Positions 890 through 43,921 of a stretch of DNA of 64,000 bases are shown in pieces. The notes under the pieces are model-generated. The model had not been told where the DNA came from, searched no databases, and saw only the letters and a list, made by a program, of their open reading frames with translations. Position 1 is the first letter of the stretch, and every line of letters begins with the position of its first letter. This stretch comes from Naegleria gruberi. Taxonomy: Eukaryota. The stretch is from assembly GCA_000004985.1 (NCBI GenBank), contig GG738875.1; one strand, 5' to 3'. The position numbers were made by a program, and so were the translations under genes.

Positions 890-3800
890 TTACTGCGTGC
901 TGCCGAGAAGGGCAACACCTCTCAACTTCCACTTTGATTTATCTTCCAAACAATTAAGTTCAACATTGAAGATAAAGGTCAAGTCACTACGATTCTTATT
1001 TCTATACACTGGGCATGTGTAAGAGTTCTTCTTCTTTTCTTTTTCCTTATTCTTATCATTAGCAGCAGCAACATTTGAATCCTTAGCAAAGGCAGAAATG
1101 TGAATAACAGGTAATTTGCAAGTGAGGATTTTTGGTAGAGATTCAGTGAGTCTTGCTGAAGCCTTATCCCAACCAGCACCTTCCAAAGATAAACCATGGA
1201 TGTAAACACCTTCACTTGGAGGTTCAATTACATCTTTTTCTTCCATCTTGGTAACTTCAGTCTTGAGTACGACATCATCAAGAGCCCAACCTCTGGCTCT
1301 AGCTACTTCTTGTTGTACAGCTGTCAAGAAACCTTGTGGATTGTAGAATCCTGTTAATTTGAATGAGTTTGGTCTTCCTTCAGTGAGCCACTTGAATAAT
1401 TGGTCATGTCTGGTATCAAGTTCATTGAACCACAAACCAATAGTTTGGGACTCCCAAGAGAATTTCTTCCAAATATCTGGAACTCTACCATCGTAAATAT
1501 TATTCAAAATATCAGATAAACCAGCACTCATGATGATAGCACCATCAATGGCCAGCTTTAAATTGGTAAGATCGGCTCTTACCATACCAATAAGCTTTTG
1601 CAATCTATCAATTTCTTGACTAAGGAAAACGTTCAATGAATTTCTATCAAAACCACCTTGCTTCTTAATTTCAGAATCAACCATATCACGTTTGAAATCT
1701 GGTGGAAGTCCCTTCAAAAATTCATCAGCCTTCTTGAAAACGTTATCTTCTCTTGTTTCTCCGGCGCCACCAGCACTTTCCTTTGGTTGAACATCGAGGA
1801 TTGTTGACAATACTGACTTTGATTCATCAGTTCTGTAGTTAATATCAGCATTAGGGTGCAAGCCAAATACTTCAGGGTTATCAATTTGAGGAATTTGCTT
1901 TTCAATAAATTCGACAAATTGTTCCTTATCTACTTCAGTGATAACTTTTTCAGCACTAACGAAAGGAATTGTGTAACCATCATAAAATTTAAATTCAACC
2001 TTTGCAACATCAGGAGATAACCACTTTTCACCATAGGTCTTGAATAGTTGTCTGTCTCTTTCGTCAGTAATCTTACCACCATAGTGTACATCGCAAATCA
2101 TGTATCTAATAGTTGGCCAACTGATGGATCCCTTCTTGATATCATCACCTATTGAAGCAAAGTGATTTTGCATGAACATTAAGGAAGCACTCAAGTCAGC
2201 AAAGTTGAATTCATAAGGAATATTCCATCCCAAGTAACCAAACTTCTTTCTTTCAGAAACAACAGAGCTCAAGAAACACATTGTGTAAATGAGTGGTTTC
2301 CATTCTGGTCTCTTTGATGCATCTAACATATCTTGTGTGACCCATTCAAAGGCGTTCTTCATACCTGCCTTCACACCAACATCGCCTTCAAGAGTAAGCT
2401 TAATAGATGTTTGAAGTAAGCCAATTGGGAATTTTGGATGAGGTTCGCTAGTAACCCAAATTCTAAAGTCTGGATGTATATTTTCAGCATTCTTAATCAT
2501 ATCTTCAATAAGACTGATAAATTTCAAACCCAAGTGACAGTTTTGTAATAATACCCAACTACCAGTGGAGAAACCAGTTTGAATATATTCTGTAGCTCTT
2601 GGTTCCTGCCCTTGACCCATAGAAATGGCTAACACATCCTTCTTGTGGTGTCTGGCCAAGCCTTCAATTGCTGAAGTTGGATCAGAACCAGGACTCAACA
2701 AACAAACAAATGGCGTCTTGTTATCACTTTCCTTCCAGACGTTATCCAAGTTGATAGGTACAACGTCTAAGTACTTTTGGCCAAGTGCTGATCTAATATA
2801 TTGCATAGCAGCAAGGATGGTTCTGTCTTCTCTCAATGAACGAATAAGTAACAATTTTTCAAAATCTGTCAGGTTACTATATTCTGGGACCTTTGTTTCT
2901 TCAGGCTTTTCTTCGTCATAGAACTTCTTCCATAACTTGTCATTCTTGTGCATTTTTTCTGGCAATTGTTTGAATGTTTCAATAGAGAACAAGCTCATTA
3001 CATTCAACCAGTTAACATCAGGTAACCAGTCAACCTTTTGTCTAACTTTAGACAAGTCAAGCAAAGAACCTCCTCTTAATAGAGTACTGAATTGTTCAAA
3101 GTCTAATTTTCCTTCTCTTAATTGAATCTTACAAGTGAGCAATAGTAAGAATAAGAACTTGTGTCTCTTGAAAAGACCTCTGCTTGTGTATCTGTAAATA
3201 ATGAAGGTACATGATTCCTTAATATTAATAATTCTTTGAGAGGCAACAGGAGCAGGAGCTGCAGTCTTAATACCTCTATCAAAGAGAATCAAGAATTGAT
3301 TCAATGAAGTTTGGTACATAGGATTGACCAATGACATTTCAACAATCAAGAAATAGAGAACAGAACCTCTGATAGCAACATCTTCATATTCCATTCTAGC
3401 CTTATTGATTCTTTCCTCAGTATCTTTTGCATTTACAAGCTTTTCCTTAATTTCAGCTGCTTGCTTCTTTGTTTGGGCTAATACAGCAATCAATACTTCA
3501 TCTTCAATAAGAGACTTGTCTGATTCTTCAGAAAGTTTTGACAACAATTGGGCTTCAAGATCAGCCATGACTTGTTGGTTACCGTTAATATCTTCCAAAA
3601 TCTTTTCTCTTTGTTCTTCCAGTTCAGCCTTTTCTTGTTGGATAACATAACCCAAAAGCTGTTGTTCCAACCCTTTCATGGTAACTGTAAAGTCAATAAT
3701 GTTGCACTTAGCAAACAACTCAGGAGTAAAGTTAGGATTGGCAATCTTTGTTGTCAAGAACAACTTGAATCCATCATCGTAATCAATAGCCTTATCTTGA

Positions 3801-6800
3801 ATGATGATTTGCTTTTGTTTACCAGTCATAACGAATGACTTTTCCAATAGAGGATCAAGCATAGGATCAATTTCTTCTTCCACATTTTCAATGATAAGTG
3901 GACGACCATTTGAAATGGCATCTTCAAGTTGATTACGGAAGTACTTGTCAGTCAATCTAACAATTAAGAGACCTTGTTTTTCAAACTTCTTCTTCAACCA
4001 GGCTAAACCTTGTCCTTGAGGATCAACCAACAAAGCCCACTTAGAGGACTTTGTCAACATGATAGCATTTTGAATTGAGTGGGAGTCAGTTGGTAAGCCT
4101 TCAAGATTCCATGCACCTATTTGAGCTTCAGTAGTCAACAAATCTACAATCTTATCCTTCTTTTCATTTTTATCTTCTTCTGTTACAGGAATATCTTTTT
4201 CTTTACAATCAGCATAGAAACATTTGGAGAGCAAAATCTTACGGAATTCACTGTTAAAAGGTCCACAGTAAGAAATAAAAGCACAAGCGAGTGCAACATC
4301 ACCAGTTAACTTTCTCAATCTATCAGAGAATTGTTTGGATTGAATACCCCATCTTTCACTTTCTCCGCCAAGAGATGAAATAAGACTGGTTGCTTGTTCC
4401 ATGAACTTTCTTGTCTTTTCAGCATCTTCTTCGAGAAGTTCCTTTTTTCTTGTTTCTTCTTCGAAAACTCTTTGCTTTTCTTCAAATTCAGCGATGACCT
4501 TATTCAATTCTTCCATCTTCTTATTCAGTTGTGCAGTAGCGATAGCAAGAGTTTCTTCAGCTTCTCTAAGTCTTTCTCTCTTTGGTCTAACTTCCTTTTC
4601 TACGTTGTGATATTCAGCCATAGCACGAACCCAAGTACACAAATTTGAAGCAGCTGAACTTGATGATTTGATGATATCATATGTAAAGAATGAGTAATTA
4701 ATATAAGGCATCAACAATTCTACAGTTTCATCTGTAATTTCATCTTGCTTAAATTGTTGGATACCTTTCAAGAAACCAGCGTCAGCAGTCATCTTTTGAG
4801 CGTTAGAATATGAGTCTTCAATTATGGCACCCAATTTTTCGTCATTAATAATTTTAACATCATTGATTGGGAATTGTCTCAAGATGAGAACACCATCAAA
4901 TACGGTTTTAATGGCTTGAGCAGGAACTGTATAGGCCTTGACAGTTTGAATGTCTTTTGGTTGAATTGAAGCAACAGCCTTTTCAGCTCTTTCCAGGGCT
5001 GGTTTAGCTTTTTCTAAATCTGCTAAAGCTTCCTTCTTTTGAATTTCAACCAAGTTATGCTCCTTTTCAATAATATCCTTTTCTTTTTCTACTTCAGTCT
5101 TCTTAGCCAATGTCTTGGTCTTGCTTTCGGAAACTTCTTTCATGATCTCTTCAGCTTTGAGTTTGGCTTCATCCAATTTCTTTTCCTTAATCTTCAACTC
5201 AATTTGAAGCTTTTCAACATCTTCCTTTGCTTCATGAAGTTTAGAGAGACCCATAGCAACGTTCTTAGCTTCTTTATCAATTTCAGCATACTTAGCTCTG
5301 TATACGTCCTTATACAACTGTATAAATGATAGGTAAGACTTTGGAGTTGTGTGGACTGCTCTTCTGAATCTTTGGAAGTATTCAGAGGCGACTTCATTAA
5401 TCTTATTGTGTACTGCAGCCATGTGTTTAATCAAACTCTTCTTGACTTCAGGTGTACAATGAATTTCATAATCATCCAAGAATTTCTTGGCAACACTTGT
5501 CAAAGCTTCCTCTGGCCATGGGAAGAACCAATTTACAGAACATCCACTGATAAGAGCAGGGAACTTCAAAGCTCTGCTTCTGAACTTCTCACTAACTGGT
5601 GAGAAGCACAATACAATATGCAAATTATCTCTAACTCTGTTGATAAAGAATCTGTACAAATTATCATAAGTATCATTTCTTCCAATAGTAGTTGGGTATA
5701 AACGTTTAGCAACCATTCTCAAATCGTTAATGATAGAATCAATTTCTTCTTTCATGAATAGACCAGAGACTTCTCCTGAAGATAAGATACTATTAATATA
5801 TTCAAGGAAAGTTTCATCTTTGATTTCGTTATCTGTGAAAATGAAACTGACTGGTTTTCCTTGCAAACCAGCAAGCTTGAACATTTCTCTTAAATCTTCG
5901 AAGAAGTTGTTAGCGTTATAAGTCTTGTGAAGAACAATTTGCTTGATTTCATAGCCTGCAATAAATGAAGAAAGTCTTGTTAATGATTGTTTTCCTGAAC
6001 CACCAACACCGACTAATAAAGCATTACCTCTTGGCATACTCAGAATTCTTGAAATACGAACCAAGTGTTTGAGAGCCATGTCGAAGAGAACCAAGTCCAA
6101 TTTTTTAATATGCTTTCTTTCACCATTGTAATTCTTCATGAATCCTTCAACTCTTTGTCTGAGAGATTCAATTGACTCAATAGGTTCATAAATCTTTGGA
6201 GCTTCTTCAACTACTTCATCAGTGTCCTCATCAACAATAGGATCTCTCAAGAAATTGACAAAGTAATAATTATCAACCTTAGCTAATTCTCTGCCAAAGT
6301 ACTTTTCAGCTGTCTTAACAATGGAATCATCAAACCAAATCTTGTCTTTGACATCATTCAATCTGTCTGAGAAAACTCTACCACATTCGTGTTTCCACAA
6401 TCCCATCAAAATTTGTGGAGTTTTAACAACATCTGAAGGACAGTTCATTAAACCTTGATAGACTCTTGATAAATCTCTCAAGTTGAAAATGTAGTGGAAC
6501 TTCTTTGGAGTTGGAAGCATCTTATCTTGAGTCATTCTCCAGAATTCAATAGTAGCTGGAGTAATGCTTGATGCAAGCTTTACCATTTCATCAGAGAATC
6601 TTGTAGTATTATATCTACCTCTGATGACAGAACCGAAGATTTGGTCAATAGATGCTACAGTAGGAAGTGTAATATTCAAAATAGAGAAGTGTCTCTTCAA
6701 TCTTTCAGGAATATCATTCTTACCACCACCTGGATGGGACATGGCAGCAATAAATTGCAAATCTTCAATATGAATAAATTCACCAATCTTAGTTAAACTG

Positions 6801-9800
6801 TAGAATCCCTTTTCTTCTACAAGTTGTCTTACAATTTCGTTTGTAACTTGATCTCCCCAAGCATTGATTTCTGGCATGTTAATATCGTCAACAAAGACTA
6901 CCATCTTCTTGTTTTGAGGTGGTCCGTAAACTCTGAATCTCTTTTCAATATTGTCTTGAATAGTGAATTGGAAGATGTTGTGTGTTGTTGCAGAAGAAAA
7001 GTTAATCTTCTTATACATCATTGTTTCAGGGTCCAAATTGTACAAGTAGTTTTCAATTGTAACAGTCTTTGCTGTACCAGAACCACCTGTGAACAAGATA
7101 TCCCTCTTTTGTTTAGCCAAGAGTTCAATGATATAGGTTGTTCTTACAGAATCTGAAGTAGGAACGTACAAGGTACTGAATTCAAGAACATCATTTTCAG
7201 GATAATTCCAAGCAGGAATAACAGCCTTCCAATTCTTCCACTTCTTAGATGCAGGATCAACGAAAAAGTCATAAATATTTTCATCTTCACCCATATCAGT
7301 TGGGAAAATGGTTGCCTTGGATTTGATATAATCACTGAATTGTTTTCTCGCCTTTGATTCCAACAAACCACCAATAGACCAAGCAAAGGAATACCAGAAA
7401 AGCATTTCAATATGTTGCTTGTCTAATTTGATTTCTCCCTTATTAGAGTGTTCTTGAATCAACTGTGTAATAATACTGAAACAGGTCATAACTTGATTGA
7501 CTCTAACAACATTCATCACAGACTTAAGCTCTTTCTTAATATAATCAACACCATTGTCAATATGAGTTGTAAATAATGTTCTGACAATAGTTGTTTCTTC
7601 TTCCTTGAACGGAGCGACTGGTACAGAGTCACCAGTTGAAATAGTTTCATTAACTCTTCCTGCGTATCCTTTCAATCTTGATTCTAAAACAGGAGCCCAA
7701 CCAAGAACGGATTCAGAAATATAAATTTGACCAGCTCTAGAAACAGTAGCAGGAGAGGCATTATTCAAGTTTTCGACTTCGAAACACATCTTAACATCTG
7801 GGGACATTGCTAATCTATCACCGTTAGCAAGAGTCAATAACTTGTTATCATCCAAAACAGTGTTCAAATTTTCAATCCAAATAGCATCAACAGGACCATC
7901 ACAATTGATCCAAATGTGTTGCTTTCTTTGTTTGTTTGCTTGTTTCCACAAGTCAGAGAAAATACCGTCAGTCCATTCGTTTGCTACTACATCAAGTTTA
8001 CCAAACATTTGATTAGCTGTAATGGCCTTTGGATTCATTCTAAGTTGTTTATATGTTTTCTCTGGATTGAGAACACTGAGTGTCTTCAATAATATAGAAT
8101 AACAAGCACTTTTACCTGAACTGGCAGCACCGACCACCATGATACCGTGACGAACCAAACAAGTTTCATATAATTGGATCACTTTTTCCACCCAAGGTCC
8201 ATGATTTTCAAAACCATTTTGTTTGATTTGTTGTTCAAGTTGCTTTTCAAGTTCTGGAAAACGTCTCTTTTCTGCAACAATTGAAGGGAACAAGTCTTCT
8301 ACAAGAGAATTGAACAAGCTAACGTCTTCAGCGACCAATTTAGAAGTGTTCATGTCTCTGAGAGTTCTCATGAGCAAGAAGTGTTCTGATTTACCAATGT
8401 TAGCTCTCATTGTTTCACCAGCAGTTCTCAAAACTGACAAAATATTTCTGAGACCAAAATCGTAGTGAGCTTGTTTTGAAAGCTGTTGTTCACAAAGTCT
8501 GTACAAGACATCGAACTTCTTTGATAATGGTTCGTTCTTCTTGTAACCAGCAGCAGCTAACTTGACTCTAATAATAATTCTTCTGTCAGGAACCATCATA
8601 GTGACACCTCTAAACAAAACCTTCAAGTTTTCTGGAAGTTCTTGACGTCCTTGATAACCAGGATTCATAGTAATAAACATGGCTGTCTTGTCATTCAATT
8701 TACATGGTTTACCATCTGTAAAAACGAATTTCTTTTTACCATCTCTCAAGGTTGACAGAATGGATTGGACTTGTTGAGCAACGACAGACAACACTTCAAG
8801 TTCAATACGATTGAATTCGTCGAAACAACCCCAAGAACCACTTTGAGCCAAACCTCTAAAGATTTTACCCATAGCTCTATAATCCATTTGATCTGAACAG
8901 TTAAAGACAACTACATATTTACCAAGAGTTCTACCCAAATCTTTAACAGTTTCTGTTTTACCTGTACCGGCTGGACCAGCTGGAGCACCACCTAACTTCA
9001 AACCGATGGCTTGAGAGAGGGTAAGATAACATCTGTCGGTCAAAGGTGTAATGACCAGTCTTTCCTTACAACCCAAATATTCATAACAATATTCTTGATC
9101 GATATCTGCAATAGAAACAATACAAGTATCTTGATCTGGTTTCCAATAGAATCTGGCTTGTTTTTGCCAATCAAAATTAATAGTGTCCTTAACTCTATCT
9201 CTTAAAAGTTCACCGAAAACGTCACGTTGGTGAACTTGAATTGTAATAAGAGTTTCAACCTTTGTTCTTTCCAAAGGAGTCAATTCTCTTGTTGTTAAGG
9301 TTGTAAGTTCATCAAGAATAGTTGAAATTTTAGCATGGGTATTAGACATTGCTCTCTTATCAGACTTGGCTGAATTCAAAGCATTTTCACATTGTACTGT
9401 CCACACGAATTGAATACCAAGAATAGTAACTTGAGCAGGATACTTTTCAATGAAACTAGTGAGTGACATTGTGTTACATTCTTCAGCAGCATCTCTGACA
9501 ATGAAACGAAGAGTTCTTTGCATTTCTTCTTCGAGTTTTTGTAACCAATCTTCAACGTTACCTGCAGCTACAACAGCATCATTAAGAGGAACAATTTCTC
9601 CTTCAGGGGATTGCATACTCAAAATCTTGTTGTCTTGTCTAGCATCGAAAGTAACCTTTGAAATAGAGTCGAAAATTGTAATCAAAGCAGGTTGAATAGC
9701 ATGAGGATCAGATGATTGAGACAAGATTTCCAACAAAGCAGTGTCAGAGTTGAAATAGAATCTTGGGAAAATATCTCTCTTTTGTTCCAAATAACCAGCC

Positions 9801-12800
9801 AAAGCCTTTTGACATTCTTCCAAACTGATTTTAAGAGCTGGCAACATCTTCAACATTTCATTATCAAAGCAGAAACGAATAACGTTTGGAGTAGCAACAG
9901 CCTTTTGTAAAATCTTGACCCAGTTCTTATCAATGTGACTGAATTTCTTGTCTTCATGTGGCAATTGTCTCTTAATATCACCACTTGCAAATACAGGCTC
10001 AAGATAAAGCCATTGAGCTTGAACTTGTCTCCAAGCTTGAATATTTTCAGTTACAGATGTAAGCTTTTGCATCCATCCAGAGGCTAATTCTCTGAATGGT
10101 TCCAAATACTTTGAACCCATGATACCACCCAAGTTCATTTGGGCTTCTTCAAGTTGTTCCATCAATTCTTGAGTTTCAGCACCCTTCAAGATAATAGGAC
10201 CACGGTGTTTGTATTCAGCGAAAGACAATTCTCTATCCTTCCATTCTTCAGTAAGCTTTTTCAACTTGTCTTCAATTTCTAATTCCTTACGAGCTGAGTT
10301 ACAAACATCTTCGACTTCTTCCTTACATGCAAGTAAATTAGCTTCCAAAATGTCTTTAAGTTTAAACACATCGTCTTCCTTCTTAAATTGCTTCTTTGTG
10401 AGGGCTTCCAAACGTTCCCAATGTCTTTCTCTCATAGATGGATTCTTAAGTTGATCCAACAATGGTTGTAATTCTAAGAAATCTTCAATAGTTTGTCTCA
10501 AATTTTCATAAGCCTCAATGCCTTTTGCAGCTTTCTTTAAAGAATTACATTTAGTAGCAAACTTGTTGACTTCATCAGTAATGGCTTGGAAATCAAGTTC
10601 AGACCACAATAACTCTCCATAACTACCAACTTGTTTCTTAACCTTAATGTATAAATCGTACAAGGTGTCGTATAACTTTAACATCTTTTTCATCTTTGCA
10701 AGATCTGGGTATTCTTGCATTGGCAATCCGAATAATTTTTCACCTTCTCTGTACACTTCATATTTTCTTTCTCTTTCAGCATACAGTCTTTGGAATTTGT
10801 TCAGTCTTTCTCTAGCTTCTTCAGGTGCAATATCAGGTACTGCAGGCCCATTAAGTGTAAAATCTTTACAGAATTGCTCGACATCGGTTTTAAAGAGCTT
10901 TACCTCAGAAATTAATCTTGTCTTGAACCCACTTTGAACCTTAGAAATAGTTTCGTTAACTTTACTGGCCAATCTAGTCAATTTCTCCCACTTGAAAGCC
11001 AGATCGTAAACTTCATCAATTTCTTCCTTAGGAACATTTACAGAGTACTTTTTCAAAATAGAATATCTGTCAGCAATTTTAGAGAAATCATATTCAATCA
11101 TTGCTTCCCTAGATCTAATATCCATAACAGTACCCATGACAAATCTCAAGTCTTCAAGGTTTGCAATTTCTTGAGATAATCTCTTTGTAGATTCATCCAT
11201 CATTGTCAAATAGTTGTTCAATTCTTCCTTTGCACTTTCGTGAAGGTTATTGGCATATTGAACTTTCCATTGAATAACTAGCTGGAGTATGGAATTCTTC
11301 AATCCTTCTGCATCCAAAAAGAATGGACCCACAATACTTGATGTCTCCATTTGGCCAATCTCATTTTCAAGAACTGTGTATTTGTTCAACTCCTTTTCAA
11401 AATCATCAAGAGTTGGCTTCTTATCAACACATTTATCAACAAACTTTTTGTAGGCTGTTTGTTTGTCTTCCTTCCAGAGATAGCTGTACTTTTCGTATTT
11501 AGCCATAAATTGCTTAATTTCTTTTTGTAATAAAGCACAAGCTCCACTAGATGTCATTACCAGTCTAATAACATCACAGTCTCTGGATACTTCTCTGTTG
11601 AAGTGAATCTCTGGTTTGCACCTCCATGGTTGGATTGCCTTTGGAGATCCTAAAACAGATTGAACAACTCTGTCAATAGACTCTTGAATTTCTTCAAGGT
11701 TAGGTTTGAGAATTACATCAGGAGCTGCAAGTTCAAAACCAATTTTGAAAATTGGATCACCATGTGTGTCCTTTCTTGTTCTGCTTCTAAAGTAATGCAA
11801 AGACTTTACGACAGAATTCAGTAAGTTTTCTAAAATTGTTCTATGGTAAAATTCTTTAAGTCGAGTCAACAAATCTGGAGTAATTGTTAGTTTTGTTTCC
11901 TCGAATGGAAAACCAGAAATTACTTCTAAAATATCCTCTACGGCTCTTTCTATTTCAATACTCTTATTGTTGAGCTGTTCAGATAATTCTTTTGAGTATT
12001 TGTCTTGTGTATCTACAATTTGTTCAAGAGTGGAATCTTCTCTTTCAGGGAGCAAGAAAAATCCAGTATTTGATATATCCTTCAAATTTTTGTCGATTCT
12101 TCCATCGATAATATCATTAACCTTAAGTAATACATCTTCTAACTTTTCCAGTGTCTTGTGAATTCTCTTTAAATAAACTGAAATATTCATAGAAGTCCAT
12201 GAAAGAGTTGTAACACCAGGATCAATTTTCTTCTCAAGCTCGTCAATATGTGGTTCAAGTAATGGCTTTACATCATCTTTAACCATAGAAAGAATTCTTG
12301 CTCTTTCCTTCAAAACAAAGGATAACTCGTTGTAATATCCTTTGTATTTTTGTTCTTGAAGGAGAACAGTTTTACCCACATCTGGGATTTCAACTCCAAG
12401 TCTCATTAACCATTTGGCTTCTCTAATGAGTTGAATTATTTCAATATCAAAGTTAACAAAGAGTCTATCTTCAACCTTAATAATCAAAGTTGCCAATAAA
12501 CCGTCCTTTGCCTTTTCAACATATTTCTTCCAAGCTTCCAACCATGAGGTTTCAAACTTGATTAAACCCATCAAAACCTTGTTGTATGTTTTGATAATCT
12601 TCTTTGATTCCTTACTTTGCATAATAGTTGGGATTTGTTGGAATTTAGTCATTGGCTCCTCTATTCTTCTCATAAGTTGTCTACACCAAATAACTTTTCC
12701 GGCAACGGGTGGGGCATTTCTTACCAATGGTGGTTTAACTTTGAATTTTTCATATAGCTTTTGAATGTTATCAAGTTGGAATCCATAGTTGTGGAAAATT

Positions 12801-14392: not shown

Positions 14393-14811
14393 TGTTTTAT
14401 TTTTTTTTAAATTGTAGTTTTTTCTTGTAGGTAATACAACGAAGAATTGGCTGTTTTGGCGCGCAATTCTGCTCAAATTTCTGCTGTAGCTTTCTCACCT
14501 GAGACAACCCTTTTGAACTTTATGAGTCAAACAATAACGTGGTTTGATGTGGGTGTATTTCGAATTGTCAGCTTCATCATTTTCTATTTGATTTCAAAGA
14601 TTAAGGGTGACATCCTTGAAATAAATTATTTCATCATCCAAATATGTCAAAAAGATCCAAGTGTAAATGTTCGTTACCGAATGCATTGATCCGAAATCGT
14701 TACGTATTAAAACAAACTGGAAATCAATAATAGAACTGGACTAACCGTTTCTCAATAAAAACTCAACAAAAAAAAATCGTAAATTATTATCTGTAGCATC
14801 ATTAATGAAAA
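14393..14811. promoter_or_regulatory. Divergent intergenic region between the dynein heavy chain (minus) and the STPGR gene (plus); putative bidirectional promoter
   Basis: A 419-bp AT-rich spacer between two divergently oriented start codons. Both ATGs are preceded by A-runs. No convincing ORF lies inside (the 14447 + ORF starts at TTG). Confidence 0.3.
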
Positions 14812-30344: not shown

Positions 30345-30395
30345 ATATTTGGCGCCTTTTTTAAACTACAATACAACACCACAAACGCAAAAAAA

Positions 30396-33300: not shown

Positions 33301-36300
33301 TCAAATTCCTTTAATTACCAAGAAAGTTTTACTTTTAAATAATGGTATCCAGAAAACTTTAACTAATGTACAAAGATTTGTAAATACCTACACCAAATAC
33401 CAAGAGTATTGGAAGACACCAAAAGAAATGGCTATGGAAAAGTTTGGTAGTAAAGACCCTTCATGGGATGCCTATTACAGAAAATTGGAAGACTATCATA
33501 GATTGTTAGAAGATATTAATTCTCATACAAAACCAATCAAGGATTTAGAATTTATTAGAATAGATTCAACATCATTTATAAAATCCTTCACAGATGAATT
33601 GAGAAAATGGATTGAAGCAATGTCCAAATTATTAAATAGCAATATTGAACCTAAAGCCAAGGAATTAAATGCTAAAATTGATAGCTTCAAGGAGGGGTTA
33701 ACAATTGAAATCAAGGAACTTGATGATTTGAGAAAGGTACTTTCAGTAATTGATGAAGGTAGATCTAGCTCTGCTGATATAGAACGAGAATATAGAGAAG
33801 TTGAGGATGTTTACCATACTATGATTTCTTATGGTGTTAAAATTCCAACTGAAGAAATGGAACTTGTTAATGGACTGAGATCAAAATGGGAAAATTTAAT
33901 GGTAGCCTCAAAGGAAATGGAAATTGAATTGATTCCACAAAAAGAAAGATTCACTTCTGAGACACAAAAGAGAGTTTCTCAATTCCAAATTGAAGTTACT
34001 AAATTGAAGGACGAATTTGATAAAGGTCCAGGTAATCCATCAGTACAATTGGAAGAAGGTCTCGAACAAATGGAGTCACTTAAAGGTGCTATGGAAGAAA
34101 AGAAAAAGACCAGAGATTACCTTGTTCAATCAGAAAAATTATTCGACCTACCAATTACTCCTTATCCAGATTTTGTGCAACTCGAAAAGAAGATGGCCAA
34201 GTTTGGTAAGATTTTCGAAATATTTGGAGATTGGCAAAAGAAGCTTACCAAATGGTCTAGAACTCTTTGGGTTGAAGCTCCTATTGAAGAAATGACCAAA
34301 GAAACCTCACGATTCTCCCAAATGTTGATTAGTAAGAAGGAATTCCCTCAAGAGCTTCAAGAATTACCTGCTCACAAGACATTTAAGAGTAAGGTTAAAC
34401 ATTTCCAAAAGACCATTGAATTACTTTCATGTCTTAAGAGTGAAGCATTGAGAGAGAGACATTGGGAGCAATTGATGAAAGCTACAGGTAAAAACTTTGA
34501 TATCAATCCATCAACATTCACATTGAAAAATTTGATTGATATGAACTTGTATGAACACGAAAATAGTATTAATGAAATCACAGAATCTGCCAATAAGGAA
34601 CTTGATGTTGAAAATACAATTAAGAAGGTTGCTGAGGTTTGGAGAAATAGAAAATTCGATCTCAAGAAGCACATTAGAGATGGTGAAGATAGAGGTTTTG
34701 TTTTGACCGGTATTGATAGTGTAAAAGAACAATTGGAAGAAGATACTGCCAACTTGGCTGCCATTTCTGGTACTCAACATTCTGTACCTTTTGCTGCTGA
34801 ACTTAGCAAATGGGAAGGATATCTTTCTAAGATTGATGAAGTTACTACTCTTTGGGTAGATGTTCAAAGAACCTGGATGTACCTTGAAATCATTTTTATT
34901 GGTTCAGAAGATATTAAGGATCAATTACCAGAACAAGCAAAAGCCTTTAAGAAGATCGATACTGATTGGGCTAAAACTATGGCTGAAACAGCCAAGAATA
35001 GAAATGTGTTGGAGAATTGTTGCCAAGGAGGTGACAAACTTTCCCTCATGTCTAGTCTACAAATAAGACTCAACGAATGCCAAAAGGGTTTAAACAATTA
35101 TTTGCAATCAAAGAGAAACGCCTTCCCAAGATTCTTCTTCATTTCAGACAATGAGTTGCTAAGTATTCTTGGTTCTTCTGATTTGAATACTATCCAAAAG
35201 AGTATTGGTAACTTATTTGAAAACTGTGGTAGTCTTATTATCAAACCAAACACTAATTTAGTTTTAGGTATGGTTTCCAAAGAAGGAGAAGAATACACAT
35301 TCGATAAACCTGTAAGAGCTGAAGGATTTATTGAAAAATGGTTAACTGCTGTTCAAAGTGAAATGAGAAAGACACTCAAAATTATTATGAAAAAATCCGT
35401 CTACGCTTATCCATCTGTTCCTAGAATTGATTGGATCAAAGAGAATCTAGGAATGGTCACTTTGTGTGGCTCTCAAATTTGGTGGACTTGGGAAGTTGAG
35501 GATTCCTTTAGAAGAGTTAAAAATGGTGAAAAGATGGCTGTTAAAAATTTGGCTGTTTTACTCACTCAAAGATTGAACGCTTTGGTTGATGAAGTTAGAA
35601 CACCTCTTAATTCTCAAGTTAGAAAAAAGATTACCACCATGATTATTATCGATGTTCATGCCAGAGATATTGTAGACAGATTGGTAAGAGACAGTATTTT
35701 GGACGAAAGAGAATTCGATTGGGAAAGTCAATTGAGATTCTATTGGGACAAATCTGCTAACGATGTTAAAATTAGACAATGTACTGGTGAATTTGACTAT
35801 GGTTATGAATATATGGGTCTTAATGGTAGACTTGTTATTACTCCATTGACTGATAGATGTTTCATGACTTTAACTCAAGCTCTTACATTTAATTTGGGTG
35901 GTTCTCCATCTGGTCCTGCAGGTACAGGTAAAACAGAAAGTGTTAAAGATTTGGCCAAGAGTTTGGCTCTTATTTGTATTGTTTTTAACTGTGGTGAAGG
36001 TCTTGACTACAAGGCTATGTATATGAATTTTTCAGGTTTGTGTCAAACTGGTGCTTGGGGATGTTTTGATGAGTTCAACAGAATTGAATTACCTGTCCTT
36101 TCTGTCGTTTCTACTCAAATCAGAGAAATTCAAAGCGCTCTTAAGGCAGCAAAGGATGAATTTAGATTTGAAGAAGAAGATATCAAACTCGATAGAAAGC
36201 TTGGTATCTTTATTACTATGAATCCAGGTTATGCTGGAAGAGTAGAATTACCTGACAATCTCAAAGCATTGTTCAGACCATGTGTCATGGTAGTGCCTGA

Positions 36301-39300
36301 TTTGGAAATTATTTGTGAAATCATGTTGTTCTCTGAAGGTTTCAACTCTGCCAGAGTTTTGGCTAGAAAGATGACAAAACTTTATCACTTAGCCTCTGGA
36401 CAACTTTCAAAACAACACCACTACGATTGGGGTCTCAGACCACTCAAATCAGTCTTAGTTTTTGCCGGTAGATTAAAGAGAGAAAATCCAGAAAAGAGAG
36501 AGGATGAACTTTTAATGAGAGCTTTGCATGACATGAATGCTCCAAAGTTTGTTTATGAAGATACGCCACTCTTCCACGATTTATTGAATGATCTTTTCGT
36601 AAATATTTCATATGAAAGACTCACTTATCCAAAACTTTACAAGGCTGTAGAAGAATCATTACAAGAAAAAGAAATGAAGTTACTTGAAGATGGTAGTCAA
36701 GTCGATAAGGTTATTCAAGTTTATGAAACCCTTGAAACTCGTCACTCTGTCATGATTGTTGGTGAAACTCAAGGAGGAAAAACAGTTGTTTTCAATGCTC
36801 TATGCTCAGCATTGAAGAAGGCTTTCAACTTTAACGTTAAACAATTGGTAATGAATCCAAAAGCTCAAGGTTTGGCAGAATTGCATGGCGTGCTTAATAA
36901 GGATACCAGAGATTGGACTTATGGTTTACTTTCATACTACTTTAAGGAACTTAACCAACCTTGTGAAAAGGGTAATGAAAGAAGATATCTTGTTTTTGAT
37001 GGTGATGTAGATGCTGAATGGATAGAAAATATGAACTCTGTCATGGATGATAACAAGATTTTGACTTTACCAAATGGTGAAAGAATTACTCTTCTCAACC
37101 CTCTCTGTTCATTAATGTTTGAAGTTGGTAACTTGAAACAAGCTTCTCCTGCCACTGTCAGTAGATGTGGTATGGTCTATGTAGATCCTAAGAATCTTGG
37201 TTTTGAACCATTTATTTGGACTTGGTTAAATCACAAGCTCAAGAAGGATCACCCAGAGAAAGTTGAAGTAATGCAACGTTTATTCGAAAAATATGAAAAG
37301 TCTTGTGTTGACTATGTATTGAAAGGTATTGATCTTGATGGTTCATTTGTTGAGAGACTCAAATTGAACGTTGTTATGAATTCTGTCAGTTTGGTATCAC
37401 AACATTGTAATATGCTTGACGTAATATTTGCTGATCCAGAACAAAATACTGAAGATGAAAGAGAATTAGAGTGCCTCTTTGTTTTCTCTCTTATTTGGTC
37501 TGTTGGCGCTGTTGTTGTGGATAACGATAGAAAACGTTTTGATGACTTTATTAAGAAACTCACAAAGTGGAAATCTGTAGATAATGGTGAAAGCTTGACT
37601 GACCATTTTGTTGGTGTTGGTTGTTGTCCTTCAAGATTGACACTTTATGAATATTTCTTTGATATTAATAATCACCAATGGAAACCTTGGAAGGTTGCTG
37701 TCCCACTTTACACTCCTCCAGCTAATGGAAGATTCTCTAGTATTATTGTTCCAACTGTTGATACAGTTAGATATACTCATTTATTGAGTTCATTTGTATC
37801 ACTTGGTAAGCCAGTACTCTTTGTAGGCTCTTCAGGTACTGCCAAGTCAGTCATGATCAAGAACTTTGTTAAAGACTTGACAGACAAGAATGAGAAAATG
37901 ACTAATTTATCTATTAACTTTTCTAGTAGAACATCTAGTTTGGATTTGCAAAGAACCATCGAAGACAATATTGAAAAGAGAGTTGGTGATAACTACGGAC
38001 CTTTACAACAAAAGAAGATGATAGTCTTTATTGATGATATGAACATGCCAAACTTTGACAAATATGGTACCCAACAACCTATTGCTTTATTGAAATTGAT
38101 GTTAGAAAAGCAAGGTTTCTATGAACGTAAAACTACCAATCTGGCCTTTATGAGATTACTTGATATGCAATACGTTGCTGCCATGCAACCAACATTTGGC
38201 AGTAATGCTATGGATCCAAGAATTGTTTCTAAATTCAATGTGCTTAATATTTCTTTCCCATCTGATGATTCTATTGACCATATTTATAGTTCCATTTTAA
38301 GTCATCATCTTACAAACTTCTCTCAAGAAATTCAAGATGTTAGTTCAAAGATAACCAAGTCAACTATTAGATTGTACAAGTATCTTGTAAATTCACTTCC
38401 TCCAACTCCTTCCAAATTCCACTACCTCTTCAACTTGAGAGATTTGAGCAGAATTTATGAAGGTTTATGTTTATCTACTATTGATAAGCAAAACGAGGCT
38501 GCAAAGTTTATTAGATTGTGGAGAAATGAACTTTTGAGAGTTTTCCATGATAGACTTATCTCAGTAGCAGATAAAACTCTCACCATCAATGCTATTGAAG
38601 ATGAAATCAAGACTGTTTTCCATAGTCACTCAGAATATGTTCTCAGAAATCCAATTGTTTATGGCGATTTCCTTGACTTCCAAGATCCAAATAATCCAAG
38701 ATTATACGAAGATTTAACGGATTATGATAGAGTTAAGCCTGTTATTGAAGATGCCATCAATATTTACAATGAAAGACCAGGTATTAAGAAATTAGATCTT
38801 GTAATGTTCGAAGATGCATTGGAGCATTTAACTAGACTTTTGAGAATTGTTAGAATGGATAGAGGTAATGCTCTCCTTATTGGTGTTGGTGGTTCTGGTA
38901 AACAAAGTTTAACTAGACTAGCATCTTTTGTTGCTGGATATGAGTTATACGAAATCAAACTCTCAAGAGGTTATAATGAAAATCAATTCCGTGAAGATTT
39001 GAAGAATTTGTACAGAAAACTTGGTGTAGAAGATAAGAAAGTATTGTTCTTGTTTACTGATGCCCATGTTGTAGAAGAAGGATTTTTGGAATTCATCAAT
39101 AATATGCTTTCATCAGGTGTTGTTCCTGCATTATTCGAAGATAATGAAAAGGATGAACTCTACAACGCAGTATCTAAGGAAATTAAGACGACTAACATTG
39201 TTCCAAATAAGGAAAATATGTGGAACTTCTTTATTAACAAATGTAGAAATAATTTACACATTGTCCTTTCAATGACACCTACAGGTAGTACCCTCAGAGT

Positions 39301-42300
39301 TAGATGCAGAAACTTCCCAAGTTTAGTTAGTAGTACTACTATTGACTGGTTCACTTCTTGGCCTTCCCAAGCTCTCAAAGAAGTTGCTAACCAATTCTTG
39401 TCAGATGATTCAGTTCCGCAAGAATTGTTGCAATCTATCAATACTCATATGATTTTCGTACATCAAAGTGTTGAGAAATATAGTAATAGATTTGCTCTCG
39501 AATACAGACGTTATAACTATGTTACACCAAAGAATTATCTTGATTACATCAATACTTACAAGAGATTACTCAATGAAAATAGAAGTAAGATTGATGAAAT
39601 GATCAAGAGACTTGATGGTGGTTTGAAGAAACTAAGAGAAGGTAAAGATGAAGTTGAAGAAAGAAAGAAGGAATTATCTGAAGCCTCTGAAATTCTCCAA
39701 ACAAAGTCTGTTGAAAACCAACAGCTTCTTCAAGTTATTAGTGAAAGACTTACAGAAGCCTCAGAACAAAGTAAACTCCAACAAGAAAGAGAAGAAGAAA
39801 TTAAGAAGGAACTTGAAAACATTCAAAAGCAAAAGATTGAAGAAGAAGAGAAGTTAGCTGTAGCTGAACCCGCTGTTAGAGCTGCAGAAGAATCTTTGAA
39901 GAAACTTGACAGAAATGCTATTACAGAAATGAAGTCATTTGCCAGTCCTTCCCAAGTCATTCAAGATGTTGGTGCTTGTATTTATATCCTCTTAGAAGAT
40001 GATTCTCCATCACAAATTACTTGGTCTAATGTTAAGTCTATCATGACTGAAGCCTTCTTTAACAGATTGGTTACCTATGAAAAGTCAAGACTTACATCTA
40101 ATAAGATTAACAAAATTGAAACTATTTACAGAAAGAACGGTGATGCCATGAAACCTGAAGAAATTGCTAAAGTTTCAAGTACATTGGCTGAAATTATTAA
40201 GTGGGTTAACTCAATGAGAGAATACTTTAATGCTATGAGGGTCGTCAAACCAATCAGAAAGAAGAAGGAAGAAGCCGAAAGAAAGCTTGCCTCATTCACA
40301 GAACAATTAGCAACCATCAAATCAAAGCTCATTAAGTTAAAAGAGGATATTGCTGAATACAAGGTAAAATATCAAAGAGGTCAAGAAGAAGAAAAGAGTT
40401 TGATTGAAAAGAAATTAAGTATGGAAGCTAAACTTACAGCTGCCAACAAACTTATTGAAGGTTTAGGCTCGGAAAGAGAAAGATGGGCTCAACAAATTCA
40501 AGAACTTGCAGAAAAGAAGAATAGATTAATTGGTGATTGTTTAATTTGTTCAGCATTTTTGAGTTACACTGGTGCCTTCACTGTTGACTTTAGAAAGGAA
40601 ATGATTCAAGAATGGATCAATGAAATGAAGGAAACAGAAATTCCACTTACATTCCCATTCGATATTGAAGATATTCTTACTGACGATGTTCAAAAGAGTC
40701 AATGGGCATATGAAGGATTACCTTCTGATAAGATTTCTACTCAAAATGGTGTTCTCACAACCCACGCTTCAAGATTCCCTCTTTGTATTGACCCTCAACT
40801 TCAAGCTGTTAAATGGATCAAGAACAAGGAAAAGAACATTAGAGTTTGCTCTTTTAGTGATTCTGACTTTATGAGAAAGATTGAAAATGCTATGAAATAT
40901 GGAGAAACTGTACTTTTTGAAAATGTTGATGAAGTTATTGATCCAATGATAGATCCTGTTTTGGATATGGAAATTAAGGGAAAGAAGAGAATTGTTAGAA
41001 TGGGTGGTGATGAAATTGATGTTGATCCGAAATTCAAACTCTACATGTGTACCAGAATTTCCAATCCTCATTACACTCCTGAAATTGCCAGTAAGACAAT
41101 TATTATCAACTACAGTGTTACTGAAGAAGGTTTAGAAGAACAATTATTGAATATTGTAGTCAATCATGAAAGACCAGAACTTGAAGAAGCAAGAAGAGAA
41201 TTGGTTCAAACAATGTCTGAAAGCAAGACTTTACTTCAACAATTGGAAGCAAAAATTTTGAAGGAATTGAACTCTACAGGAGGTGGTTCCCTTATTGATA
41301 ATGTTGAATTGATTCATACTTTAGAAGAAACTAGAAACAAAGTACGTGAAATCAACACAAAGATCATTCAGACAAAGCAAAACGAGAAAGAAAACTTTAA
41401 GGCTAGACAAGGCTATAGACCTGCTGCAAAGAGAGGTACTATTCTCTACTTTGTCATGTCCAGTTTATCAAATATTAACTCTATGTATGAATATTCATTA
41501 TCTTCATTCTCACAAGACGTCTTTGAAACTTCATTGTCAAGAAGTCAACCTTCAAGAATGTTAGAAGGTAGATTGGATAATATTGTTGACTACTTGACCA
41601 AGTCAGCATATAGTTATACATGTGCTGGTTTGTTTGGTGTGCACAAACTTTCATTCTCTCTCCAAATTGTTCTCAAGATTATGGATAGTGAAACTAGACT
41701 TAATCAAGCTGAACTTGATTTCTTCCTCAAGGGTGATCTAACAATTGGTCTTGAAACTCCAAATCCATGTGAATGGTTATCTGAAAGCAGTTGGAAAGAT
41801 TTGTTAGCCCTTTCAAAGATTTGCGAAAACTTAAAGGGATTATCTGAAGACGTTACCAATAATTCTTTATGGAAAGAATGGTATGACCATGCTGAGCCAG
41901 AAGCTTTACCTCTTCCAAACGAAAAATATCAAAGTGTTGTTACTCCATTCCAACAAATGTGTATTCTTCGTTGTTTGAGACCTGACAGAATTGTAGTTTC
42001 TGCAACCAAGTTTATTGCAGATGAGATGAAGAATGAATATTTTGTCAAACCACCTGTTCTCACTTTTGAAAATATCTTTAGTCAAAGTTCCAAGCTTTCA
42101 CCAATTGTTTGCATGATCAGTCCTGGTTATGACCCAGCAAATGACATTATCAAACTTTCAAATGAACTTGATAAGAGAGTCAAGTATATTTCTCTTGGTG
42201 AAGGTCAAGGTGAAAAAGCCCTTGCTTTGCTTGAAAAAGGTATTTCTAAAGGCATGTGGGTTCTTCTTCAAAATTGTCATTTGTTGGTTGATTGGATGAA

Positions 42301-43921
42301 GAATGTTGAACACATTTTAGAAAAACTTGAAAAGGATAAGGTTCATGATGAATTTAGACTCTGGTTAACAACTGAAGTTACTCCAAAATTCCCTATTGGT
42401 ATTCTTCAACGTTCTCTTAAGGTTGTCACAGAGCCTCCAAACTCTTTGCAACTTAACATGAAATCAACATTTTCTAATATTTCTGATCCAGAGTTAGATG
42501 AATGTCACCACAAATCTTTCAGACCATTAGTTTATGTTCTGTCTTATTTCCATGCTGTTATCCAAGAAAGAAGAAAGTATGGTAAAATTGGTTGGAATAT
42601 TCCATATGATTTCAACAAGTCTGATTTTGATGTCAGCTTCAGTCTTATTAGAACATATTTGAATAAGGCATCAATGTATAATGATCCAATTCCATGGGAC
42701 AGTCTCAAGTACCTTGTTGGTGAAGCTATGTATGGTGGTAGAGTTACAGACAAGTTTGACAGAAGAGTTCTTACTACATATCTCAATGAATTTATGGGTG
42801 ACTTCTTGTTTGATACCTTCCAACCTTTCCGTTTCTACGAAGATGAAAGTGTTTGTTATGAGTTACCACCAATGGAAAGAGAAAAGCTTATCGGAAAACA
42901 AAATATGATTGTTCCACTTGCTGTAGAAGATTTCTCTGAATTTATTGAGAGGAACGTTAAGCTTACAAACTCTCCAAGCGTTTTTGGTTTGCATCCTAAT
43001 GCAGAAATTGGTTACTTGACCAATTCTACATCTAATTTGTGGAGTGATCTCATATCTTTACAAATTGGTGTATCTTCTCATGGTGGTAAAGGAACTGGTG
43101 ATGAATATATCAAATCAGCCCTCAGCATTATCCCAGAACCATTTGATAAGGAAGAAATTCAATCAAAGATTCTTCAAAAGTCAAGCAAGCTCACTCCAAT
43201 TAATGTAGTCTTACTTCAAGAAATTGATAGATGGAATGCTCTAGTAGCAGTTATGAAGAGATCATTAATTGATTTGCAAAAGGCTTTGGCTGGTGAAATT
43301 GGTATGAGTGAAGAACTTGAAAATTTGAGTAATTCCATTAATATTGGTATAGTTCCTCAACTCTGGAAGCAAATGGCACCACCAACAAGATTGAATTTAT
43401 CTTCATGGTTAGAACATTTCAAGGAAAGATATAGTCAATATGTTGATTGGATTAAGTATGGTGAAGATCCTGTTGTTATTTGGTTGAGTGGTTTGCATGA
43501 ACCAGTTTCCTACATCACTGCTCTTATTCAAATGACATGTAAGAAATACAAATGGCCTCTCGATCGTACAACTATTACAACTAGAGTTACAGAGTACAGA
43601 GCCTCACATCAAGTCAAAGAAAAGCCTCAAGATGGTTGTTATGTGCGAGGTTTATTCTTGGAAGGAGCTGCTTGGGACTTGAAGAATAGATGTCTTAAAA
43701 CACAAAATCCAAAACAATTGAGAGAAGAACTTCCTATTCTTGAAATTATTCCAACAGAAAACTCCAAAGTCAAATTACAAAATACTTTCAATGCACCTGT
43801 TTATTATACTCCAGATAGAAATGATGGTGGTAATAAGGGATTGGTATTTGAAGCTAATCTCCAAACTGATGAACACGAAAGTATTTGGACCTTACAAGGT
43901 GTTGCAGTAACAATGACTTAA
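30396..43921 (+). CDS. Axonemal dynein heavy chain of about 4,446 aa (inner-arm-like). Model: join(30396..30722,30771..30863,30910..31410,31453..31627,31677..43921)
   Basis: Four short 5' introns of 48, 46, 42 and 49 nt with GTAAGT, GTAAGC, GTATGT and GTATGT donors. They join the track ORFs 30396.., 31009.. and 31709.. in frame. The N-terminal DHC_N1 signature is present (SMMNAIRMVWVISRYYNTDKRM). AAA1 P-loop GPAGTGKTESVKDLAKSLA...FNCGEGLDY...WGCFDEFNRI. AAA2-4 P-loops GETQGGKT, GSSGTAKS, GVGGSGKQ. Stalk and C-terminal domain are present. The final 12.2 kb is intron-free. Confidence 0.85.

Follow-up and report, generated by a model that had tools for sequence, protein, structure and literature searches.

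Two axonemal dynein heavy chain genes lie in the window, the whole 64,000-nt stretch of Naegleria gruberi DNA analysed here (scaffold_31:96001-160000, with the offset derived from jgi_34546). They are ancient paralogues, an outer-arm chain and an I1/f alpha chain, both induced during differentiation, and their proximity is probably best read as inherited gene order within a collinear block plus chance. The window is gene-dense, and besides the dyneins it carries a gene for a protein with sperm-tail PG-rich (STPGR) repeats; a search for tRNA genes across it found none. Three of its proteins are identical to the N. gruberi entries EFC43189, EFC43190, and EFC43191.

The sequence observations in the original prediction, which described a flagellar gene neighbourhood, were correct in each detail checked. 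The first dynein (about 4,500 aa) is a real gene, read as a single ORF of 4,500 aa with no introns; the second (about 4,446 aa) is also real, and its five-exon model gives 4,446 aa; the spacing of about 16 kb corresponds to 16.0 kb from start codon to start codon; and the divergent ODF3/SHIPPO-type gene lies on the strand opposite to the first dynein and matches the SHIPPO repeat. Nine unrelated genes separate the two dyneins.

The N. gruberi gene set already includes both dyneins, public tables list them as outer-arm and I1 alpha chains, and their induction is already contained in RNA-seq data. The window is ordinary and already annotated, and the importance of the analysis beyond annotation is small. 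Three gene models are corrected: the outer-arm dynein starts at 14392, the I1/f alpha gene gains its first two exons, and the STPGR gene has an additional 44-nt exon (Table 1).

Table 1. Positions in the window of the dynein and STPGR genes and of associated features
Feature	Position	Strand	Basis or remark
Outer-arm dynein heavy chain gene	890..14392	minus	one exon, 4,500 aa; public model jgi_39535
Divergent intergenic region, outer-arm dynein ATG to STPGR ATG	14393..14811		419 bp; candidate bidirectional promoter
TTTGGCGC motif	14455..14462	plus	63-70 nt upstream of outer-arm dynein ATG
STPGR exon 1	14812..15574	plus	gene model; orthologues in N. fowleri and N. lovaniensis
STPGR exon 2 (44 nt)	15614..15657	plus	encodes ENYIYFGDKLSANKE; splicing restores frame
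STPGR exon 3	15700..16473	plus	gene model; complete protein 526 aa
Gap, TPR/Sel1-repeat gene stop codon to I1/f alpha dynein ATG	30345..30395		51 bp; TTTGGCGC at 30348..30355
I1/f alpha dynein exon 1	30396..30722	plus	gene model
I1/f alpha dynein exon 2	30771..30863	plus	gene model
I1/f alpha dynein exon 3	30910..31410	plus	gene model
I1/f alpha dynein exon 4	31453..31627	plus	gene model
I1/f alpha dynein exon 5 (12.2 kb)	31677..43921	plus	Pfam architecture; public model jgi_37059

Two axonemal dyneins of different classes

Sequence comparison identifies the minus-strand gene as an outer-arm heavy chain of the Chlamydomonas gamma / human DNAH5-DNAH8 class, a family named ODA-alpha in PMC4415241. 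Its ORF spans 890..14476 and has its first ATG at 14392; the N-terminus read from there, MVIRDTRAKY, aligns with MVIRDIRSKY in N. lovaniensis and MVIRDARSKY in N. fowleri. Seventeen Pfam families match in canonical order (E=1e-151 to 1e-10 for the dynein-specific ones) and make up a complete heavy chain, with DHC_N1, DHC_N2, AAA1-AAA6, a coiled-coil stalk with the microtubule-binding domain, and the C-terminal domain. The catalytic AAA1 site has the Walker A motif GPAGTGKT at residue 1806 and the Walker B motif DEFNR at residue 1858.

Among solved structures, the best matches of this protein were Chlamydomonas gamma (4060 bits) and human DNAH5 (4033 bits), about 1,600 bits ahead of the next class (2456 bits); the other Chlamydomonas outer-arm chains scored 2241 (beta) and 1848 bits (alpha). 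DNAH5/DNAH8 homologues also ranked first in the protein search, and animal and haptophyte gamma-class orthologues are 43-45% identical to it. The Naegleria chain resembles Chlamydomonas gamma (ODA2/DHC15) and DNAH5/DNAH8 in length (4,500 versus 4,485-4,624 aa) and in Pfam architecture, including the DYH2-5-8 coiled coil, and it aligns end to end with the Chlamydomonas gamma chain 7kzm_C (residues 112-4498 against 116-4483 of that chain); its gene differs from theirs in being intronless. The exact sequence was absent from the protein collection searched, and no N. gruberi entry for either dynein gene appeared among the matches of the homologue searches. The public models jgi_39535 and jgi_37059 were tied to the two genes by the scaffold coordinates in a preprint table.

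The plus-strand gene, of the DNAH10 class, can likewise be identified as encoding the alpha heavy chain of I1/f, a two-headed inner-arm dynein. Its four introns (42-49 nt, all GT..AG) lie within the first 1.3 kb. Exons 1-4 encode the N-terminal 376 aa, which are collinear with the orthologues, and a Pfam scan of the large exon revealed the full dynein architecture. The JGI model begins at 126904 on the scaffold and thus lacks the first two exons. Residues 10-4446 of the complete model align throughout with residues 10-4447 of the N. lovaniensis protein (86% identity). The catalytic AAA1 site of the I1/f alpha chain carries GPAGTGKT at position 1778 and DEFNR at position 1830. The N. fowleri dyneins share 90% clusters with the N. 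lovaniensis dynein orthologues.

The best solved structure for the I1/f alpha protein was the Chlamydomonas chain 8glv_Cn (4,625 aa, 4013 bits), followed by human DNAH10 (3816 bits), trypanosome IDAf-alpha (3698 bits), and DNAH2 (2419 bits), with a gap of about 1,280 bits between the best class and the next. In the protein search, DNAH10 / dynein-1-alpha homologues ranked first, Chlamydomonas dynein-1-alpha (I1; 4,625 aa) being a named match. The alignments with Chlamydomonas DHC1/PF9, human DNAH10, and trypanosome IDAf-alpha span nearly the whole 4,070-aa large exon, and the Chlamydomonas and animal I1 alpha orthologues are 44-47% identical to the Naegleria protein; the Chlamydomonas and human chains are longer (4,589-4,625 versus 4,446 aa).

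A neighbour-joining tree built on 3,108 alignment columns of the motor domain placed both genes with full bootstrap support. The outer-arm dynein grouped with gamma/DNAH5/DNAH8 (100%), apart from DNAH9/11/17 and the inner-arm and cytoplasmic classes, and the I1/f alpha dynein grouped with Chlamydomonas I1 alpha and DNAH10 (100%), apart from I1 beta/DNAH2 and the single-headed inner-arm, outer-arm, and cytoplasmic classes. The AAA1 signatures on which the original prediction had based a difference of class are both present, that of the I1/f alpha chain within KDLAKSLALICIVFNCGEGLDY, and the separate clades bear the difference out. Both dyneins are axonemal and far from the cytoplasmic dyneins, which answers the phylogenetic question that it had raised. 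The motor domains of the two chains are 36% identical; because of this low identity and the separate ancient clades, they are not recent duplicates, and a recent duplication of the pair is rejected.

The STPGR gene and its product

We conclude that the interval 14812..16473 encodes a real sperm-tail PG-rich repeat (STPGR/SHIPPO) protein. The product of the short second exon, ENYIYFGDKLSANKE, corresponds to DFTFFGDKLSHHKD in the orthologues. Single-intron models also have open frames, yet they were rejected since only the three-exon model reproduced the conserved FFGDKLS of the orthologues. The public model (jgi_68853) has 519 aa and lacks NYIYFG; we found no mention of jgi_68853 in a literature search.

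The Pfam family SHIPPO-rpt (PF07004) matched the 526-aa model with 26.3 bits against a curated cut-off of 20, and it matched all five members of the family (best E=2.3e-11). Six motifs of the PGPxY type start at residues 120, 192, 274, 361, 420, and 498, one of them being PGCVY, and about five or six degenerate motifs lie between them; the spacing from tyrosine to tyrosine is mostly 33-45 aa. At the profile level, similarity was spread over several different members of the ODF3 and STPG groups (E=1e-9 to 4e-3): the family profile matched solved ODF3/CIMAP1A chains with E=1e-9 to 1e-6 and Tetrahymena STPG2 with E=1e-4, and the single sequence matched STPG2 weakly (E=0.37). No one-to-one orthologue was found among the named members ODF3, ODF3L, STPG1, and STPG2. 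Clear relatives were found solely in Naegleria, Willaertia, and one metagenome contig.

The protein thus has PF07004 and PGPxY motifs separated by about 35-45 aa in common with ODF3/CIMAP1 and STPG1/STPG2, and profile similarity links it to sea-urchin, mouse, and bovine ODF3/CIMAP1A and to Tetrahymena STPG2. It is about twice as long as the ODF3/CIMAP1 and STPG proteins (526 versus 251-293 aa), and its serine/asparagine-rich N-terminal 110 aa have no counterpart in them. The PG motif, defined as P-G-P-x-Y, is a tubulin-binding unit, with spacers of about 40 aa corresponding to 8 nm (PMC10105768). By analogy with the solved Tetrahymena STPG proteins, the Naegleria protein would most likely run along the groove between protofilaments of the doublet microtubule; each PGPxY motif would bind one tubulin, and the spacers of about 35-45 aa would set the 8-nm step.

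Expression and gene order around the dyneins

Expression was taken from the part of Data S2 of bioRxiv 10.1101/2024.01.08.573270 available to us, which covers RNA-seq of the differentiation from amoeba to flagellate. According to these entries, both dyneins are induced, with log2 fold changes of 5.6/8.6/9.4/9.0 for the outer-arm chain and 1.2/3.7/4.5/3.8 for the I1/f alpha chain. The strong induction of the former while flagella are assembled is indirect support for a putative location in the outer arm. Since both dyneins are axonemal and both are induced, neither a cytoplasmic placement nor a lack of co-expression speaks against the original prediction. The two genes belong to different expression clusters (1 and 5), and their peaks (log2 9.4 versus 4.5) are about 30-fold apart. 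In the same entries, dynein genes on six other scaffolds (1, 3, 15, 21, 33, and 41) are also induced, and the time course of the I1/f alpha dynein is closer to those of the dyneins on scaffolds 3 and 41 than to that of the outer-arm dynein. Two of the nine intervening genes have data in this part of the table: the ariadne-type ligase gene (jgi_1362) is flat and not differentially expressed, and the KTI12-like gene (jgi_34546) rises weakly, by at most 1.3 log2.

The linkage of the dyneins persists in three Naegleria species, the dynein proteins being about 14% different from those of N. gruberi. In N. lovaniensis, both lie on one contig, divergent and separated by 26.7 kb; the block retains the order of its calmodulin-like, STPGR, SNARE, peptidase, ligase, and Sel1 genes, and its unrelated genes are as collinear as the dyneins. 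A contig search with the peptidase protein yielded a 4-kb metagenome contig and nothing else. In N. fowleri, the linkage is seen from the locus tags FDP41_005431, 005430, and 005417. In Willaertia, the outer-arm dynein/STPGR pair is intact, and the I1/f alpha dynein lies 139 kb off, one dynein being inverted relative to the other. To model chance, 10-12 dynein heavy chain genes were placed at random in a set of 15,798 genes, a close pair being one within 10-14 gene ranks; at least one dynein pair this close arose in 5-11% of random placements. At the 5% level the linkage therefore shows no significant excess, and it is not clearly above chance, although the probability is low enough that weak selection on linkage is possible.

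These results divide the original prediction. A flagellar neighbourhood stands in so far as the dyneins are axonemal, both are induced in the available data, and the STPGR gene is real; the regulatory meaning given to their closeness is not supported. Evidence against reading the co-location as co-regulation comes from intervening genes that are flat or weakly induced where these data cover them, from the different clusters, and from a linkage that belongs to a generally collinear block and is loosened in Willaertia. As a co-regulated cluster the arrangement falls short, for its members are not adjacent, the intervening genes with data in these entries are off-pattern, and the linkage goes beyond neither chance nor the surrounding gene order; we detected no regulatory meaning in it. 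Under the preferred reading of inherited order plus chance, both dynein genes are switched on when amoebae build flagella, as the RNA-seq entries show. Each would be induced from its own short promoter, as dyneins on other scaffolds apparently are, and the arrangement that may matter functionally would be the head-to-head outer-arm dynein/STPGR pair alone.

The head-to-head pair, the wider neighbourhood, and the upstream motif

The outer-arm dynein/STPGR pair has been retained in N. gruberi, N. fowleri, N. lovaniensis, and Willaertia, in the last on two contigs, while neighbouring genes have been rearranged. It is the sole arrangement kept in all four species, which makes a shared bidirectional promoter plausible, and the short shared intergenic region (419 bp in N. 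gruberi, 323 bp in N. lovaniensis, and 133 bp in Willaertia) resembles that of eukaryotic bidirectional gene pairs. It is possible, though we consider it doubtful, that this pair is the only functional unit, with one promoter co-expressing the motor with a protein of the doublet surface that cooperates with the outer arms, and with the I1/f alpha dynein as a bystander. The binding of doublet microtubules by the STPGR family is in keeping with this idea. The sequence between the genes, however, is poorly conserved, and very short intergenic regions withstand rearrangement even without selection. Moreover, a contig from a more distant heterolobosean carries the dynein orthologue next to a divergent gene whose 514-aa product is unrelated and lacks PGPxY motifs. 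The STPGR protein also evolves fast: the N. gruberi and N. fowleri sequences are 49% identical, whereas the dynein orthologues of N. lovaniensis reach 86%. The pair offers a modest lead for work on promoter architecture or doublet-surface proteins in Naegleria, in which the synchronous de novo assembly of flagella makes tests practical.

We regard it as unlikely that selection has shaped the three genes, possibly together with the calmodulin-like gene, into a flagellar neighbourhood whose proximity aids coordinated induction, for example through shared chromatin opening or enhancers. The calmodulin-like gene (jgi_34466), directly downstream of the outer-arm dynein, is induced in differentiation according to the entries available, as both dyneins are, so that the local density of induced genes is somewhat high; several induced genes within 45 kb are also found in co-expressed eukaryotic gene neighbourhoods. 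Retention of the dynein linkage in N. lovaniensis and N. fowleri, a chance probability of just 5-11%, and an upstream motif common to both dyneins point the same way. Yet the region differs from such neighbourhoods in its nine interspersed unrelated genes, flat or weakly induced in the two cases with data, and in that co-expressed dynein paralogues are unlinked elsewhere in the genome, those on the six other scaffolds being induced equally well in the entries consulted. The roughly 30-fold difference in peak induction between clusters, the equally well kept order of the unrelated block genes, and the distance and relative inversion in Willaertia also argue against it.

Least probable of all is that the pair conserved in Naegleria and Willaertia marks a functional partnership. 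In that case the long STPG protein, with about 11-12 tubulin-binding motifs, enough for about 90-96 nm, would serve the outer arms as a lineage-specific ruler or docking strip on the doublet surface, and a single bidirectional promoter would drive both its gene and that of the motor.

The motif TTTGGCGC lies 41-70 nt upstream of both dynein starts and occurs four times in the window, where 0.40 matches would be expected, and it could be a shared regulatory element. We did not adopt it as an E2F-like flagellar promoter element: its GGCG core is also promoter-proximal at unrelated genes, and a search upstream of the N. lovaniensis and Willaertia outer-arm dynein genes did not find the core. Upstream of the I1/f alpha dynein, a related GGCG motif occurs about 45 nt before the ATG in N. 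lovaniensis and Willaertia, and in both of these the Sel1 gene is again the direct upstream neighbour.

Gene structures and dynein classes

The genes of the original prediction are confirmed. The spans and lengths claimed for the two dynein heavy chains (approximately 4,500 aa on the minus strand and 4,446 aa on the plus strand) match the models below, both quoted AAA1 signatures are present, and the STPGR gene between the dyneins is real, with a three-exon model and a Pfam SHIPPO-rpt match. The first dynein protein and its N. lovaniensis and N. fowleri orthologues share the N-terminus MVIRD..., indicating that the start at 14392 is right and that the gene lacks introns. The second is collinear with proteins of N. 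lovaniensis (4,447 aa) and Willaertia magna (4,451 aa).

Features of the window and their coordinates
Feature	Position	Strand	Details
Calmodulin-like gene	1-~740	minus	runs off window start
Outer-arm dynein, ORF	890..14476	minus	first ATG 14392; 4,500 aa
Outer-arm dynein, gene	890..14392	minus	14197-14392 precedes start of public model jgi_39535
STPGR gene, original ORFs	14812..15585, 15703..16473		one gene
STPGR gene, exons	14812..15574, 15614..15657, 15700..16473		526 aa; splicing restores the frame
KTI12-like gene (jgi_34546)	22065-22928		scaffold_31:118065-118928 in the expression table
TPR/Sel1-repeat gene, ORFs	27603..28373, 28425..30344		single gene
I1 alpha dynein, gene	30396..43921	plus	five exons, four GT..AG introns of 42-49 nt, all in first 1.3 kb; 4,446 aa; 30396-30904 precedes start of public model jgi_37059
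TTTGGCGC sites	14455-14462, 17796-17803, 29031-29038, 30348-30355		four copies

The public models of all three genes look imperfect: jgi_39535 misses the first 65 codons that follow the conserved start, jgi_37059 begins inside exon 3, and the STPGR model NAEGRDRAFT_68853 (519 aa) omits part of the 44-nt exon kept in the orthologues. It lacks ENYIYFGDKLSANKE, a segment contained in the three-exon model and retained by the orthologues from N. fowleri and N. lovaniensis. Protein searches surfaced no N. gruberi entry for either dynein. EFC43189, EFC43190 and EFC43191, from a 396,166-bp scaffold of N. gruberi NEG-M, are identical to three window proteins, and the position of jgi_34546 in the published expression table places the window at scaffold_31:96001-160000. 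The G+C content is 30-37% throughout.

Both dyneins have the full heavy chain architecture and a canonical AAA1 site. Among solved structures, the first matched best Chlamydomonas outer-arm gamma (4060 bits), the trypanosome chain 9e5c_7a, deposited as "dynein heavy chain, putative" (4040 bits), and human DNAH5 (4033 bits), the next class being DNAH10 (2456 bits). The second matched 8glv_Cn, a 4,625-aa Chlamydomonas chain (4013 bits), DNAH10 (3816 bits) and trypanosome IDAf-alpha (3698 bits), followed by DNAH2 (2419 bits). Large protein searches returned named DNAH5/DNAH8 homologues for the first, and DNAH10 and Chlamydomonas dynein-1-alpha of the I1 complex for the second. In a neighbour-joining tree of 30 sequences (3,108 motor-domain columns, rooted on cytoplasmic dyneins), they fell into the DNAH5/DNAH8 and DNAH10/I1 alpha clades, respectively, each with 100% bootstrap; neither is cytoplasmic. 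These separate clades and an identity of 36% indicate ancient paralogues, in agreement with the proposal of different classes rather than recent duplicates. Judged by sequence comparison, the class assignments are right, and they can be narrowed to outer-arm gamma/DNAH5 and I1/f alpha/DNAH10.

Expression and linkage of the dynein genes

Both dyneins are induced during flagellar differentiation (Data S2, bioRxiv 10.1101/2024.01.08.573270), and a lack of co-expression therefore cannot be held against the original prediction.

Log2 fold changes during differentiation
Gene	Scaffold	20/40/60/80 min	Cluster
jgi_39535 (outer-arm dynein)	scaffold_31	5.6/8.6/9.4/9.0	1
jgi_37059 (I1 alpha dynein)	scaffold_31	1.2/3.7/4.5/3.8	5
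jgi_30143 (dynein)	scaffold_3	0.9/3.3/4.1/3.4	5
AKG0042 (dynein)	scaffold_41	1.5/3.8/5.2/4.7	5
jgi_1362 (ariadne ligase, between dyneins)	scaffold_31	not differentially expressed	none
jgi_34546 (KTI12-like, between dyneins)	scaffold_31	at most 1.3	11

In the same study, 6,389 of 15,798 genes changed more than two-fold, and dynein genes on scaffolds 1, 3, 15, 21, 33 and 41 were likewise induced. Since unlinked dyneins are induced and the time course of the I1 alpha gene resembles those of jgi_30143 and AKG0042 more than that of its outer-arm neighbour, co-expression is independent of co-location. Nor is the block induced as a domain, since jgi_1362 and jgi_34546 are flat or weak.

Nine genes besides the STPGR gene lie between the dyneins, among them genes for a SNARE protein, a mitochondrial-processing-type M16 peptidase, dyskerin (TruB/PUA domains in the identical protein), a KTI12-like protein (a label read from sequence, no family scan), an ariadne-type RBR ubiquitin ligase, two proteins without clear domains (one with a weak glycosyltransferase-18 match) and, upstream of the I1 alpha gene, a TPR/Sel1-repeat protein. 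No flagellar genes were found downstream of the I1 alpha gene in the window, where an AAA_22-like protein, deoxyhypusine synthase, a short-chain dehydrogenase, an MFS transporter, an HlyIII-family protein, a methyltransferase and COX15 are encoded. N. gruberi has 12 dynein heavy chain models, 10 of them axonemal (bioRxiv 10.1101/2024.01.08.573270); when 10-12 genes were placed randomly among 15,798, 5-11% of trials produced at least one pair no more than 10-14 gene ranks apart.

The N. lovaniensis orthologues, C9374_005806 and C9374_005820, are divergent on one contig, 26.7 kb apart, with the calmodulin-like, STPGR, SNARE, peptidase, 241-aa ORF, ligase and TPR/Sel1 genes in the same order; collinearity stops right after the I1 alpha gene. 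In N. fowleri the outer-arm gene is tagged FDP41_005431, the STPGR gene 005430 and the I1 alpha gene 005417, and a single contig size is given for them. The Willaertia magna dyneins are 139 kb apart, one inverted relative to the other, and the Sel1 gene is directly upstream of I1 alpha as in N. gruberi and N. lovaniensis. The collinear N. lovaniensis block and the Willaertia distance suggest that dynein-dynein linkage is ordinary gene order. With unlinked dyneins induced, the intervening jgi_1362 flat and jgi_34546 weak, and gene order generally kept, the suggestion that co-location reflects co-regulation is not supported. Public annotation and data already contain the genes, the classes they belong to and their induction, and the finding as a whole is ordinary.

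In N. lovaniensis PYSW02000025.1, a gene call approximately 9 kb downstream of the I1 alpha gene (L002 32945-33548) matches HTH_OrfB_IS605, a bacterial-type transposon-associated domain.

Upstream regions of the dynein genes

The gap between the TPR/Sel1 stop and the I1 alpha start is only 51-73 bp in N. gruberi, N. lovaniensis and Willaertia, so the dynein promoter must either be very small or extend into the upstream gene, whose orthologues have 904 aa in N. lovaniensis (L002 7160-10000) and 877 aa in Willaertia (L003 7304-10000). TTTGGCGC, which fits the E2F-type consensus TTTSGCGC, occurs four times in the window against 0.40 expected; two of these copies precede the two dynein start codons by 41-70 nt. 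In N. lovaniensis (L002 9955) and Willaertia (L003 9957), a related motif precedes the I1 alpha start codon by approximately 45 nt. The GGCG core is promoter-proximal in general: at 5 of 13 sites an ATG follows within 150 nt, unrelated genes included.

The STPGR gene and its head-to-head dynein partner

The outer-arm dynein/STPGR pair is the only arrangement that stands out, and its conservation is a minor lead. In Willaertia magna the two genes are head-to-head, with a gap of 133 bp, on two contigs; on a more distant heterolobosean contig (dynein 62% identical) the divergent neighbour encodes an unrelated protein.

The full STPGR model and its four relatives match Pfam SHIPPO-rpt above the curated cut-off. 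Against solved structures, the single sequence matched Tetrahymena STPG2 only at E=0.37, while a profile built from the five sequences matched sea-urchin, mouse and bovine ODF3/CIMAP1A (E=1e-9 to 1e-6) and STPG2 (1e-4). The protein contains six PGPxY-type motifs (one PGCVY) along with roughly five or six degenerate copies, mostly spaced 33-45 aa apart. Within the doublets of Tetrahymena, the PG motif serves as a tubulin-binding unit, spacers of ~40 aa correspond to 8 nm, and PG-motif proteins sit in outer wedges between protofilaments (PMC10105768). By analogy, Naegleria STPGR most likely binds doublets as a filamentous protein approximately 11-12 tubulin steps long. It evolves fast, sharing 49% identity with its N. 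fowleri relative and 32% with the one in Willaertia.

The Willaertia contigs, JBEGDK010000072.1 and JBEGDK010000116.1, both carry the pair and the next gene, with identical STPGR proteins and the dynein called as fragments on one; they may represent two haplotypes, a duplication or an assembly error. Within the window, the calmodulin-like gene directly downstream of the outer-arm dynein encodes an EF-hand lobe, a serine/proline-rich stretch of ~120 aa and the first part of another EF-hand. The public model located there, jgi_34466, rises during differentiation, reaching a log2 fold change of 4.5, and N. lovaniensis has a 281-aa counterpart in the same position (L001 23607-24501).
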